A stretch of DNA of 64,000 bases, from IMG/VR virus record IMGVR_UViG_3300024298_000005. One strand, given 5' to 3'. This DNA is from a virus. Its lineage: Duplodnaviria; Heunggongvirae; Uroviricota; Caudoviricetes. The notes under the pieces are model-generated. The model saw only the letters and a list, made by a program, of their open reading frames with translations. It did not search any database and was not told where the DNA came from. This document shows, one piece after another, positions 36,636 through 41,347 of this stretch (its first letter is position 1; the number at the start of each line of letters is the position of its first letter). A program made the translations under genes and the position numbers.

Positions 36636-36890
36636 ATGACACAAAGAGAAGTATTTGAATATAACAATGAAGAAGAAGCCGAAATGGCTCAGATTCATAG
36701 TCTACACATTAATCAGAACGCTATAGATTCTGTACAAGCAGAGTTGGCTCGTCAAAGATCACAGCCTAGTCTAGAGGAATGTGAAGACTGCGGTGAAGCT
36801 ATTCCACAGGCTAGACAGCAAATGGTCCCAGGTTGTACACGCTGCGTATACTGCCAAGGCTTATTTGAGCGTCGTAGAGCTGGATACTAA
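36636..36890 (+). CDS. DksA/TraR-family C4 zinc-finger protein
   Basis: CEDCGEAIPQAR-x-CTRCVYC (CxxC-N17-CxxC) at C-terminus, size 85 aa. Confidence 0.6.
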   Translation: MTQREVFEYNNEEEAEMAQIHSLHINQNAIDSVQAELARQRSQPSLEECEDCGEAIPQARQQMVPGCTRCVYCQGLFERRRAGY

Positions 36891-36920
36891 TAGGCCCCGC
36901 TGCTATACACACGTACATGT

Positions 36921-37259
36921 ATGCAAAAGAAAAGACTATTATCTAAAAGCAGAGACTCTATGACCCTACCTGATGAACGTTATCGCGCTGTAGAGCAAAC
37001 ACAGCGTTTTCTAGAATCACTATTAGATTCTGCACAAACTCCCAGAGTACCCAAAAAGATCCGAGATTCAGCAAGAAGTCTGCTGCGCCACTATCCCTCA
37101 CGTTGGGATCTAGATCGTGCAGCAGCAGCTAGTCCTGATGTTTTTATACGTAGACTTGATCCCTTGTACAAGATGGTCAAGACTCATGACATGCAGCAGC
37201 GTATGGCCGAGGATGTGGAAGAAGATCTACGTGAAGCTAAGAATAGAGGTGAACTATGA
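36921..37259 (+). CDS. hypothetical protein
   Basis: 112-aa ORF, start uncertain (alternative ATG 36960). Confidence 0.4.
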   Translation: MQKKRLLSKSRDSMTLPDERYRAVEQTQRFLESLLDSAQTPRVPKKIRDSARSLLRHYPSRWDLDRAAAASPDVFIRRLDPLYKMVKTHDMQQRMAEDVEEDLREAKNRGEL

Positions 37260-37432
37260 CTAGGATAAAGATTGTTCAACCGGTGGAAGCGGACGGGGAA
37301 GTGGCTATGACTCCAGAAGAACTAGCACTAGCACAGGCTCGTCAACGTGCTGCGCTGGTGCCTAAATACGGGGAACCTGGCTGGAATCCTGATGCTCGCG
37401 ACCCCGACACTGACACCTTACCCAATCAATAA
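37256..37432 (+). CDS. small hypothetical protein (58 aa)
   Basis: ATGA overlap with previous stop; hand translated. Confidence 0.35.
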   Translation: MTRIKIVQPVEADGEVAMTPEELALAQARQRAALVPKYGEPGWNPDARDPDTDTLPNQ

Positions 37433-37438
37433 TTAATT

Positions 37439-37515
37439 CACGCATTAGCTCAGTTGGATAGAGCAACAGCCTTCTAAGCTGTGGGTCAGGGGTTCGAATC
37501 CCTTATGCGTGGCCA
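37439..37515 (+). tRNA. tRNA-Arg (anticodon UCU), CCA encoded
   Basis: cloverleaf folded by hand: acceptor CACGCAT/ATGCGTG, D GCTC/GAGC, anticodon loop CUUCUAA, T-loop TTCGAAT. Confidence 0.8.
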
Positions 37516-37519
37516 GTTA

Positions 37520-37597
37520 GGGCCTCTAGCTCATGTTGGTTAGAGCAGCGGACTCATAATCCGTTGGTGCCGTGTTCGACTCACGGGGGGCCCACCA
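37520..37597 (+). tRNA. tRNA-Met (anticodon CAU; could instead be lysidine-modified Ile2), CCA encoded
   Basis: cloverleaf folded by hand: acceptor GGGCCTC/GGGGCCC, anticodon loop CUCAUAA, T-loop TTCGACT. Confidence 0.75.
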
Positions 37598-37604
37598 CTT
37601 GAGA

Positions 37605-37640
37605 AACCCTATAGTCAACTCAGCTATAGGGTTTTTTCTT
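37605..37640 (+). terminator. rho-independent terminator after tRNAs
   Basis: AACCCTATAG-loop-CTATAGGGTT followed by TTTTTTCTT. Confidence 0.7.
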
Positions 37641-37667
37641 GTCCAAACGGCTGTGATCGTGTACAAT
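37639..37667 (+). promoter_or_regulatory. sigma70-like promoter TTGTCC-N17-TACAAT
   Basis: weaker -35; precedes 42-aa ORF. Confidence 0.35.
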
Positions 37668-37689
37668 ATGCATTTAAACAAGGACAGCA

Positions 37690-39080: not shown

Positions 39081-39116
39081 GCATACAATAGAGACTTAGC
39101 AACAAAGGAGCGCGAT

Positions 39117-39455
39117 ATGCAGACACTTTTTAGCACAGCAGGCGACGGCTTGTGGAGCAACGTAGCAAAGCCTGTACACATTGTAGACATGCAACTTGCC
39201 TACATTAACGACGAGAGAGATTTTGGCGAGCTGCGTGTTTACTTTAACACTAAGTTTTGGGACGTTAACAAAGACGGTCTCATTTACACAGACAGCAACT
39301 TTATTGAAGAACTGCGCAATTTTTTAATTGCACAAGAACTAACTGACGACTGCGACTACAGCGAGCAAGGCATGCAGGGAGACAACTACGTTAGCTTAGA
39401 CGTGGGAGAGGGCTTTATTGCTGCGTGGGATGCAAAGTTTAACTTGTTTGCATAA
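39117..39455 (+). CDS. hypothetical protein
   Basis: AAAGGAGCG RBS. Confidence 0.5.
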   Translation: MQTLFSTAGDGLWSNVAKPVHIVDMQLAYINDERDFGELRVYFNTKFWDVNKDGLIYTDSNFIEELRNFLIAQELTDDCDYSEQGMQGDNYVSLDVGEGFIAAWDAKFNLFA

Positions 39456-39461
39456 GCACAA

Positions 39462-39498
39462 AACGGGGGTTGACAACAGCCCCCGTTTATAGTACAAT
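39462..39498 (+). promoter_or_regulatory. stem-loop (AACGGGGG/CCCCCGTT) enclosing -35 of promoter TTGACA(39470)-N17-TACAAT(39493)
   Basis: 8-bp inverted repeat flanks TTGACAACAG; read directly. Confidence 0.5.
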
Positions 39499-39527
39499 AG
39501 ACACACATTAACACAAAGGAGCGTGAA

Positions 39528-39950
39528 ATGGCTACTCGAAGCACTATTGCAATGGAGCAACCCGACGGTCGCGTAATGCAGATCTACTGCCACTGGGACG
39601 GTTACCTTGATCACAACGGAGAGATCCTTCAGGAGCACTATCGTGATCGCGCTAAGGTTTTGGCACTCATGTATCTGGGCGATATCAGCTCCTTAGCTCC
39701 TAGCATCGGAGAACCGCACGATTGGGACAACTGCCCTGAGGGTGTCTGCAACGCCTACGGACGCGATCGTGGCGAATCGGGCTGTGAAGCTCGTGTGTTC
39801 AAGGACTTTGAGGACTACAAGGCCAACCACCAGTACGAAGAATACGAGTATATCTTCCGTTCGGACGATCAGTGGTATGTTTCCGAATACAGCCGAGCCT
39901 ACCGCGCACTTGAGCAGGTGCTGGCAGAAGCAGAAACCCTAGAGGATTAA
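39528..39950 (+). CDS. hypothetical protein
   Basis: AAAGGAGCG RBS; 140 aa. Confidence 0.5.
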   Translation: MATRSTIAMEQPDGRVMQIYCHWDGYLDHNGEILQEHYRDRAKVLALMYLGDISSLAPSIGEPHDWDNCPEGVCNAYGRDRGESGCEARVFKDFEDYKANHQYEEYEYIFRSDDQWYVSEYSRAYRALEQVLAEAETLED

Positions 39951-39969
39951 GGGTTATTACTGAATGGGG

Positions 39970-39998
39970 TTGACAACAGCCTCATTTGGTAATATAAT
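39970..39998 (+). promoter_or_regulatory. sigma70 promoter GGTTGACAACAGCC-N-TATAAT (imperfect hairpin around -35)
   Basis: TTGACA 39970, TATAAT 39993, spacer 17. Confidence 0.55.
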
Positions 39999-40031
39999 AG
40001 AGGTATGTTCAACAAATGCATAGGAGCGAAA

Positions 40032-41105
40032 ATGCCAGCAGTAATTGAGATTCGTGAGGGTTCGTATAAGATCCGTGGCTCAGATGTGAGCATGGCCGGT
40101 AACCGTTTCGAACTAGTAGAGCAATACAAAGAAGGTGCTCAGGGTGGTTATGTAACCGTAGAAGGTGGCTCTGTACAGCCTGCTAACCCTGGCATTCCAG
40201 ATCGTAAGATCCGTATTCGTTGCAGTTCAGCACAAAGTTACATGATTGTCGCCGGTGAAGTGCCAGCAATGCCCGCAGGTGATAAAAGTTTGGAGCAGAT
40301 TAAAATTTCAGATAATGCCGTAGCACACGAAACGGACGAGCAGATCATCGAACGTCTTCGTAACCGTTTTGACGTGCTCAAAGATATGACCAAAGCAGTC
40401 AAAGAAGGTACCGTGCGAGCTATGATCGTCACAGGCCCTCCAGGCGTGGGCAAGAGCTTTGGTGTAGAAGAAGTACTAAGCAAGGACGATCTCTTTGATA
40501 TGATGGGTCAGCGCAAGCCCAAATATGAGATTGTCAAAGGCGCAATGTCAGCAGTGGGTCTGTACAGCAAGCTCTATCACTACAGCGAAAAAGGCAATGT
40601 TATCGTGTTTGATGACTGCGACTCTGTGCTGTTGGATGACCTTAGCCTTAATATTTTGAAGGCTGCTCTGGACTCTAGCAAGAAGCGTACTATCTCTTGG
40701 AACACTGACAGCCGTGTTCTGCGTTCAGAAGGAGTGCCAGATCGCTTTGAATTTAAAGCAGGCGCTATCTTTATCACTAACATCAAGTTTGAGAATGTGC
40801 GTTCTAAGAAACTGCAGGATCACCTTGCCGCTCTTGAAAGCCGTTGCCACTACATTGATCTTCAAATGGACACAGATCGCGAAAAGGTCTTGCGCATTAA
40901 GCAGATCACCCAAGATGGCATGTTGGACAGCTACGAGTTTGAAGACTGCGTTAAGGATGAGATCATTGATTACATTCTTGAAAAACGAGCACAAATGCGT
41001 GAGCTGAGCCTGCGTACGGTACTCAAGGTAGCAGACCTGCGCAAGAGCTTTCCTACAAATTGGAAGAGCATGGCAGAAGTTACCGTTATGAAGCGAGGTG
41101 CCTAA
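40032..41105 (+). CDS. AAA+ ATPase with unique N-terminal domain
   Basis: Walker A GPPGVGKS, Walker B VIVFDDCD; AGGAGCG RBS before ATG 40032. Confidence 0.65.
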   Translation: MPAVIEIREGSYKIRGSDVSMAGNRFELVEQYKEGAQGGYVTVEGGSVQPANPGIPDRKIRIRCSSAQSYMIVAGEVPAMPAGDKSLEQIKISDNAVAHETDEQIIERLRNRFDVLKDMTKAVKEGTVRAMIVTGPPGVGKSFGVEEVLSKDDLFDMMGQRKPKYEIVKGAMSAVGLYSKLYHYSEKGNVIVFDDCDSVLLDDLSLNILKAALDSSKKRTISWNTDSRVLRSEGVPDRFEFKAGAIFITNIKFENVRSKKLQDHLAALESRCHYIDLQMDTDREKVLRIKQITQDGMLDSYEFEDCVKDEIIDYILEKRAQMRELSLRTVLKVADLRKSFPTNWKSMAEVTVMKRGA

Positions 41106-41347
41106 TGGAAGGCCCGTCTAAGACCTGTACTTGGATTGGGCCCGAGCAGGACCCTTTGAAGCACTGGCCCATTCATTACTGCGGGTGTCCTAGTGTTCAA
41201 GGGTCTAGCTACTGCGCTGATCACTACTGGAAGGTCTATGCTCGAGGCACTTCAGTTAACGGCCGTCGACGTGAACGTGCCATAGAGCAAGAGATTCAAC
41301 AACTTAAACAAGCACAAGAGCTTGAGGAGTATGAAAATGAAAACTAA
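41105..41347 (+). CDS. GcrA C-terminal-domain-like zinc-binding protein (no N-terminal DNA-binding domain)
   Basis: TCTWxGP ... HYCGC ... YCADH matches GcrA CTD signature; TAATG coupling to AAA+ gene. Confidence 0.5.
   Translation: MEGPSKTCTWIGPEQDPLKHWPIHYCGCPSVQGSSYCADHYWKVYARGTSVNGRRRERAIEQEIQQLKQAQELEEYENEN

Follow-up and report, generated by a model that had tools for sequence, protein, structure and literature searches.

GcrA is a two-domain regulator of alphaproteobacteria. The fold of its C-terminal sigma-interacting domain (SID) has reportedly been called unique by its crystallographers. The C-terminal domain alone binds domain 2 of sigma-70, and GcrA deprived of its N-terminal domain is still found at sigma-70 promoters in vivo (PMC4647560). 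The residual activation observed with GcrA lacking its DNA-binding domain (DBD) is explained by a basic patch that touches the non-template strand of the discriminator (PMC9976885). The zinc ligands of GcrA are C118, C133, C143 and H146 (C-x14-C-x9-C-x2-H), and each of the substitutions W120A, G129D, F130A, F132A, Y142A and Y151A abolishes the interaction with sigma-70 in two-hybrid tests (PMC5887438). Full-length GcrA homologues, which carry both domains and pass the Pfam GcrA model, are also known in phages, as exemplified by phiCbK gp222 (PMC3556154). Here we describe a 64,000-nt stretch of DNA (the window) from the Caudoviricetes record IMGVR_UViG_3300024298_000005, in which a short open reading frame (ORF) encodes a SID separated from the rest of GcrA, immediately downstream of a gene for an AAA+ ATPase.

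A GcrA sigma-interacting domain without a DNA-binding domain

The protein in question is encoded as follows.

41105–41347, + strand: standalone GcrA-SID-like protein of 80 residues, with a CCCH zinc knuckle, a basic patch and a C-terminal helix that ends in acidic residues

The zinc knuckle follows the pattern C8-x17-C26-x10-C37-x2-H40. Only seven residues precede the first ligand, no helix-turn-helix match was found, and the protein thus has no DBD. The single sequence gave a borderline score against the Pfam GcrA model (PF07750), 17.0 bits (E = 0.008) with a cut-off of 26.9 bits, over model positions 109–147 of 155. Six of eight close homologues matched the same region of the model, with a best E-value of 2.4e-5, and a precomputed PF07750 match is carried by only some of the relatives. 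When a profile built from 8 close relatives was used to search 1.84 billion representative proteins, about 100 clusters were found, most of them of proteins of 60–100 residues. The same profile retrieved six full-length proteins (P0067, P0088, P0097, P0100, P0103 and P0109; E = 2e-7 to 9e-4), which align to it via their C-termini and pass Pfam GcrA over both domains with 50–103 bits. Comparison by hhalign of a 121-sequence SID alignment with full-length GcrA proteins yielded a probability of 98.4% (E = 7e-15) over the zinc-knuckle region.

The best sequence match of the SID profile in the PDB was 5yix_B, which is the GcrA SID, at a weak E-value of 0.26, and a phmmer search of the PDB with the single window sequence did not find GcrA. 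The AlphaFold (AF2) model of the protein has a mean predicted local distance difference test (pLDDT) score of 87 and consists mostly of loops, with a short helix at residues 38–44 and a long helix at residues 51–79. When this model was compared by Foldseek with 350,542 PDB chains, the top three matches were the three GcrA SID structures, 7ye2_G, 5yix_B and 7ye1_G. Template-modelling scores normalised to the target ranged from 0.30 to 0.65 and root-mean-square deviations from 2.2 to 3.0 Å; with so small and irregular a domain, E-values were poor (about 1). Since the Pfam matches of the homologues, the retrieval of GcrA by the profile, hhalign and the fold search agree, the homology is solid, and the ORF encodes a homologue of the GcrA SID that lacks a DBD. 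All ORFs named in the preliminary description of the locus, made from the sequence, were confirmed at the positions given there. That description had proposed exactly this, a GcrA C-terminal domain devoid of its N-terminal DBD; the profile, hhalign, fold and zinc-ligand data bear it out, the Pfam evidence coming from the homologues and not from the single sequence.

Conservation was counted over 121 sequences of the phage family. The correspondence with GcrA residues is given below.

GcrA C118, C133, C143 and H146: window C8, C26, C37 and H40; invariant in all 121 sequences
GcrA Y142: window Y36; invariant in all 121 sequences
GcrA Y151: window Y45; tyrosine in 120 of the 121 sequences
GcrA W120: window W10; always aromatic (Y in 89, W in 27, F in 5)
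GcrA A150: window V44; always hydrophobic
GcrA G129, F130 and F132 (first loop): window P22, I23 and Y25; not conserved
GcrA L110 and L113 (strand): no counterpart in the window protein

Three of the six GcrA residues that are essential for sigma binding (W120, Y142 and Y151) are therefore kept, and the other three (G129, F130 and F132) are not conserved family-wide. As judged from the alignment, the phage family appears to retain the core of the GcrA interface and not its periphery. The domain is followed by a basic patch, RRRER, at residues 54–58, of which R54 is conserved in at least 90% of the sequences; lysine and arginine make up 37% of this segment across the family. The C-terminal helix, the family consensus of which is NEAxxELExEG, is absent from GcrA.

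Standalone SIDs form a large family: metagenomes contain at least 359 clusters (90% identity), and the median length is 90 residues. No model of the family was found in PHROGs, NCBIfam or PADLOC. A tblastn search of 50,697 phage records with the window protein gave no match, and a tblastn search with a divergent family member identified gp220 of Pseudomonas phage PA5oct, a 75-residue protein annotated as hypothetical (NC_071039.1, 174202–174429; L180, 2456–2683). This protein features the pattern C16-x9-C26-x10-C37-x2-H40 with the YC and AY signatures, and scores 33.5 bits against the family hidden Markov model. The gp220 gene lies directly 5' of the genes for the YccA/Bax1-I-like membrane protein gp219 and the phage FtsH gp218, with ClpS and Hsp20 genes close by, and is 75 kb from the gene for the NrdC.10-like gp126. 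PA5oct depends on the host RNA polymerase (RNAP) and uses TTGAC/TATAATA promoters (PMC7318152). Because gp220 of this Pseudomonas phage is a member, the family is not confined to phages of alphaproteobacteria.

Metagenome-assembled genomes (MAGs) were also inspected. Host inference from genome collections rested on four MAG contigs of inconsistent taxonomy, binned as Beijerinckia, Planktophila and Burkholderiales. An 82-residue standalone SID, which passes Pfam GcrA with 28 bits, is encoded on the high-G+C, Burkholderiales-binned contig DATLZE010000125.1 (L098, 363–611). Because this gene sits in a bacterial chromosomal context, DBD-less GcrA-like proteins exist in bacteria too, and the 129-residue P0070 looks similar. 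Another of the four contigs, L099, is not from a phage and carries a genuine chromosomal GcrA of 114 residues.

The NrdC.10-type ATPase and its pairing with the SID gene

The SID gene belongs to an operon whose features, and those of its surroundings, are as follows.

39528–39950: phrog_1987 protein, 140 residues
39970–39998, + strand: perfect sigma-70 promoter (TTGACA-N17-TATAAT) driving the AAA+, SID and membrane-protein operon
40032–41105, + strand: AAA+ ATPase of 357 residues, T4 NrdC.10 / phrog_1250 family
40032–40256, + strand: N-terminal all-beta domain of the AAA+ ATPase (residues 1 to about 75), seven strands in the AF2 model, pLDDT 85–91
41337–41537, + strand: small protein with two hydrophobic (predicted transmembrane) segments, overlapping the SID gene at its 3' end; 41331 is an alternative start
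41615–41893, + strand: winged-helix protein HTH_39 (Pfam PF14090, 31.7 bits), with its own near-consensus promoter
42790–43875: MoxR-type AAA ATPase (phrog_1297, E = 5e-101)
44033–45241: phrog_1314 protein, 402 residues

The -10 hexamer of the operon promoter ends 33 nt 5' of the ATG at 40032, and this ATG follows a GGAG. The ATPase was assigned this start, and not the ATG at 40005, because the promoter is too near the latter. Its product is identical to a gene product already present in public data (P0220). It matches phrog_1250 with an E-value of 2.5e-79 over residues 94–363, and homologues occur in 1306 phage records. Identity is 47% to PA5oct gp126 and 36–37% to proteins of T4-like phages, one of which, in Acj9, is annotated nrdC.10. 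Walker A (GPPGVGKS), Walker B (VIVFDDCD), sensor-1 (TN), an arginine finger within an SRC motif (ESRCHY) and sensor-2 (R328) are all present; Walker A, Walker B, sensor 1, R271 and R328 are invariant in 20 aligned sequences, including those of PA5oct, VAP7, Atu_ph07 and Acj9. The best PDB matches of the family profile were RFC4, RFC2, RFC5, Cdc6 and T4 gp44, all weak (E = 5e-4 to 0.09) and of partial length. The AlphaFold model, obtained from a shallow alignment, has an overall pLDDT of 65 and is of low quality beyond the N-terminal beta domain, and a fold search with it matched generic AAA+ proteins only. On these matches, the ATPase seems weakly RFC/Cdc6-like.

The preliminary description had correctly recognised a 357-residue AAA+ protein and had called its N-terminal domain unfamiliar. 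The domain is a feature of the family and not an oddity of this phage, as it aligns with the N-termini of PA5oct gp126, the Vibrio phage VAP7 and Atu_ph07 proteins and Acj9 NrdC.10. The window ATPase thus has in common with the T4 NrdC.10/phrog_1250 proteins (PA5oct gp126, Acj9) both the N-terminal beta domain and all AAA+ motifs. In contrast, the domain is missing from a sister clade of AAA+ proteins of 289–293 residues. A small ORF located between the AAA+ and SID genes in that clade was considered as the missing domain and rejected, since it encodes a hydrophobic membrane protein. A search of the literature found no function assigned to nrdC.10.

The AAA+ and SID genes are translationally coupled, the stop codon of the former and the ATG of the latter sharing bases in TAATG, as first noted from the sequence. 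Conservation of this arrangement was surveyed in two samples. The close-clade sample comprises 80 IMG/VR loci found with the SID profile. The AAA+ gene is directly upstream of the SID gene in all 80, and the gap measures -1 or +1 nt in 72 of the 75 measurable junctions (ATG start). Since all these loci form one syntenic lineage, the 80/80 pairing is weak evidence on its own. In one of them (L073), a 723-nt insertion separates the two genes; it contains an ORF of 232 residues in reverse orientation (5526–6224, - strand), the N-terminus of which, by our reading of the sequence, looks like that of a GIY-YIG homing endonuclease.

Stronger evidence is provided by diverged contigs. On these, SID proteins are 30–40% identical to the window protein, AAA+ proteins are 66–72% identical and lack the N-terminal domain, and the HTH_39 and membrane-protein neighbours have been relocated; the SID gene still follows the AAA+ gene, either directly or past one small membrane-protein ORF. 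The sister-clade sample, 80 loci chosen by AAA+ alone and hence unbiased for the SID, includes 73 in which the AAA+ gene has a SID gene no more than 350 nt away on its own strand. Six AAA+-selected loci, each with 3 kb of sequence available 3' of the AAA+ gene, have no detectable SID. Moreover, no SID gene is present within 2.5 kb of the AAA+ homologues of PA5oct (gp126), VAP7, Atu_ph07 and Acj9 (NrdC.10). The pair is therefore conserved in the close and sister clades and does not extend to the distant AAA+ proteins; PA5oct gp126 and Acj9 NrdC.10 differ from the window ATPase in this respect. A tblastn search of the phage records with a sister-clade SID gave one match, inside a gene annotated as 'replisome organizer', which was spurious, its translation having no CCCH motif.

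The genes around the pair vary in stability. A homologue (TM71) of the window membrane protein was found, at the same position, in 80 of the 80 close-clade loci. The HTH_39 gene adjoins the SID locus in the close clade only, and is relocated in the sister clade. In the sister clade, a small ORF with two transmembrane-like segments lies between the AAA+ and SID genes (L089, 4796–5008; L091, 4700–5008; and most of L100–L179). A membrane protein thus recurs in the operon, before the SID gene in the sister clade and after it in the window, with no obvious homology between the two. The phrog_1987 gene is always just 5' of the AAA+ gene in the close clade and diverges fast (30–73% identity). The most conserved pair of the neighbourhood comprises the MoxR-type ATPase and the phrog_1314 protein, which are 81–94% and 74–90% identical across relatives, respectively; the former is 51% identical to its PA5oct counterpart. 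Median identity to the window across close-clade loci is 51% for the SID protein, 70% for the AAA+ protein and 88% for the downstream MoxR-like ATPase; the SID protein evolves faster than its neighbours.

The early region and the DksA/TraR-like gene

The window contains 19 exact TTGACA-N17-TAYAAT sites, compared with 0.02 expected by chance, in agreement with the many consensus promoters reported at first. Eighteen of these are on the + strand, between 23578 and 55131, and the remaining one is on the - strand (62490–62518). Fourteen fall between 36.6 and 51.0 kb, each 5' of a short ORF. The array looks like a dense set of perfect sigma-70 early promoters. The interval from 35 to 52 kb is a + strand run of short genes with a G+C content of 0.46–0.49, compared with 0.36–0.40 in the flanks. 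This step separates, within one phage genome, the early-gene block (34000–52000) from the flanking structural and replication regions. Additional features of the window are listed below.

36600–36628, + strand: perfect sigma-70 promoter (TTGACA-N17-TATAAT), 5' of the DksA/TraR-like gene
36636–36890, + strand: DksA/TraR-type C4 zinc-finger protein of 84 residues, TraR-sized (Pfam PF01258, phrog_54, TIGR02419)
37439–37515: tRNA-Arg(TCT), inside the early region
37520–37597: tRNA-Met(CAT), inside the early region, 4 nt from tRNA-Arg(TCT)
55152–55832: Bax1-I / YccA-like membrane protein (Pfam, 176.8 bits)
55829–56392: 2-oxoglutarate-Fe(II) oxygenase, directly after the Bax1-I/YccA-like ORF

When the 36–44 kb region was compared by megablast with the 50,697 phage records, the two tRNA genes were the sole matches, and no close cultured relative was found. 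At the protein level, the early genes have relatives in the Pseudomonas jumbo phage PA5oct, and one virion protein has relatives in T4-like cyanophages. Metagenomic relatives are located on contigs of up to 354–374 kb. Pfam scans of ten further early ORFs (46–57 kb) revealed no sigma factor and no other RNAP-related protein. The Bax1-I/YccA-like ORF belongs to the same family as PA5oct gp219, the neighbour of gp220.

The ORF at 36636–36890 had been described as carrying a CxxC-N17-CxxC finger of the DksA/TraR type, and this identification is sound. As read from the translation, the finger is C49-x2-C52-x17-C70-x2-C73. The protein scores 37.2 bits (E = 2.9e-9) against Pfam zf-dskA_traR (PF01258), above the 24.9 cut-off, and matches PHROG 54, 'DksA-like zinc-finger protein', with an E-value of 2e-17. 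Its score of 53 bits against NCBIfam TIGR02419 (TraR family) is slightly below the cut-off of 59.7. It thus resembles TraR/DksA, phage TraR-like and phrog_54 proteins in its C4 finger, N17 spacing and TraR size. The acidic tip motif of DksA is DxxDxA; in the window protein we read the N-terminal acidic stretch EEEAEMA as an equivalent ExxExA. By its sequence, this protein is best taken as an ordinary phage factor of the RNAP secondary channel, separate from the SID gene.

Possible modes of action and relation to known systems

In the reading we favour, for which we see about as much chance of being right as wrong, the SID-like protein is an early protein that docks on the primary sigma factor of the host. 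It would be expressed early from the perfect sigma-70 promoter and co-translated with the weakly RFC-like, NrdC.10-family AAA+ ATPase. Its zinc knuckle would dock on sigma domain 2 (region 1.2, region 2.1 and the coiled coil of the non-conserved region), as that of GcrA does, and the protein would travel with the holoenzyme. Having no DNA-reading domain, it would act without sequence specificity; its basic patch would bind the non-template strand at the discriminator, and open complexes at the many consensus promoters of the phage would be stabilised. The protein might also occupy the site of host sigma cofactors, so that it would stabilise open complexes, block cofactors or do both. The AAA+ ATPase and the small membrane protein of the operon probably act with it. 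The literature on DBD-less GcrA points to residual activation via the basic patch (PMC9976885). To titrate or redirect sigma-70, as first proposed, is one of several possible outcomes.

Several points weigh against docking on sigma. The single window sequence is below the Pfam GcrA cut-off, and we infer binding to sigma-70 domain 2 (region 2) from homology only. The strand that carries L110 and L113 in GcrA is missing, as the window protein begins 7 residues before C8. The loop between the first and second cysteines, which holds G129, F130 and F132 in GcrA, is hypervariable in the phage family (9–23 residues), and the equivalents of F130 and F132 are not conserved. The invariant residues could reflect folding instead of sigma contact. 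The GcrA-sigma interface is lineage-specific, because sigma-70 domain 2 of E. coli fails to bind C. crescentus GcrA (PMC4647560), and the MAG hits for this phage point to several different bins (Beijerinckia, Planktophila and Burkholderiales). Finally, PA5oct gp220 has no basic patch, and its gene adjoins the YccA-like and FtsH genes and not that of the NrdC.10-like ATPase.

That co-translation is conserved speaks for the AAA+ and SID proteins being partners. Against a strict dependence of either protein on the other stand the layout of PA5oct and the distant AAA+ homologues that have no SID. Given the proteostasis genes around gp220, the SID fold might be connected with AAA+ proteases. In a first alternative, which we regard as unlikely, the zinc-knuckle protein serves the co-translated ATPase as a dedicated subunit or adaptor and is unrelated to sigma-70; the SID fold would have been reused as a small module for interactions, with the ATPase, or its nucleic-acid or protein substrate, as the partner. 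The stop/start overlap or 1-nt gap in nearly all loci, a pairing that outlasts the rearrangement of all other neighbours, the conserved C-terminal helix not found in GcrA and the hypervariability of GcrA's sigma-contact loop in the phage family would all suit such an adaptor. However, the most conserved surface residues of the SID are sigma contacts in GcrA (PMC5887438), PA5oct encodes both proteins from genes set far apart, and loci with the ATPase and no SID exist, both among the six AAA+-selected ones and around the distant homologues cited above.

A second alternative, which we consider improbable, combines the two partners. The SID would be a targeting subunit that tethers the weakly RFC-like ATPase to sigma-70 on the host RNAP, and ATP-driven remodelling would strip or reposition sigma, or load a factor onto transcription complexes, thereby timing the switch away from early sigma-70 transcription. 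In T4, the clamp-loader / gp45 / gp33-gp55 system couples AAA+ activity to late transcription, and the targeting-subunit arrangement would loosely resemble it. If true, the phage would appropriate sigma by a new route, with a domain domesticated from a cell-cycle regulator.

Less probable again is a decoy function, whereby the SID competes with the GcrA of an alphaproteobacterial host for the sigma-70 site and shuts off GcrA-dependent cell-cycle genes during infection. The domain and its conserved contact residues are shared with GcrA, which binds sigma-70 tightly in a 1:1 ratio (PMC5887438, PMC9976885), full-length GcrA homologues are known in Caulobacter phages (PMC3556154), and one related MAG contig is binned as Beijerinckia. 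Other MAG bins indicate Actinomycetota and Burkholderiales, and the phage SID family, with its many clusters, is very broad. The host of PA5oct, Pseudomonas, is a gammaproteobacterium and offers no obvious competitor, GcrA having been characterised as alphaproteobacterial (PMC3667746).

That the DksA/TraR-like, SID and AAA+ genes form a single coordinated RNAP-directed module, the 'cluster' of the preliminary description, is very unlikely, since, although both small proteins come from families with characterised RNAP-binding members and both are early genes with perfect consensus promoters, the DksA-like and SID genes are 4.2 kb apart, with two tRNA genes and about ten ORFs intervening, and have different promoters, the former lies about 7.5–7.8 kb upstream of the latter in the four relatives in which it falls inside the fetched flank (L029, L056, L060 and L081), and DksA/TraR-like genes are common in phages (phrog_54).

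Docking on sigma remains the reading we favour, and the systems closest to it can be compared at different levels. The window SID and the SID of C. crescentus GcrA (PDB 5YIX, 7YE1 and 7YE2; PF07750) both feature a CCCH knuckle with equivalent ligands, a fold made mostly of loops with a short helix at its end, and a basic patch after the domain. Both have an aromatic residue after the first cysteine, a tyrosine before the third cysteine and a tyrosine five residues past the histidine. The ligand spacing differs, being C-x17-C-x10-C-x2-H in the window protein and C-x14-C-x9-C-x2-H in GcrA. GcrA possesses an N-terminal DBD and a 60-residue linker, both of which are absent from the window protein; the latter also lacks the L110/L113 strand and has an extra C-terminal helix of about 30 residues. 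Unlike GcrA, it is encoded by a phage, next to an AAA+ gene, and is under the Pfam GcrA cut-off.

Neither a DBD-less SID family nor its pairing with an NrdC.10-type ATPase was found in the searchable literature, in accordance with the initial impression that the arrangement is undescribed. The GcrA C-terminal domain is now seen as a standalone protein, in a large family, in abundant large phages and beside a conserved AAA+ gene. PA5oct gp220, from a phage of Pseudomonas aeruginosa, is a cultured representative, and makes the family experimentally accessible. These findings would also offer a first functional handle on the NrdC.10 AAA+ family, members of which occur in over 1300 sequenced phages, T4-like phages among them.

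Phage proteins of the phiCbK gp222 type and the window SID are both relatives of GcrA carried by phages, and host transcription is their presumed target; the former keep both domains, whereas the standalone family keeps the sigma-interacting half only. By inference, the window protein would resemble RbpA and Crl as a small protein riding on sigma domain 2 and possibly stabilising open complexes via basic residues near the -10 element and discriminator. The folds of RbpA and Crl are unrelated to the SID, and the analogy is functional only. If SID proteins bind the primary sigma factor, they would define a new type of phage-encoded cofactor or anti-cofactor of sigma, with sigma domain 2 as its target. 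AsiA, in contrast, targets sigma region 4.

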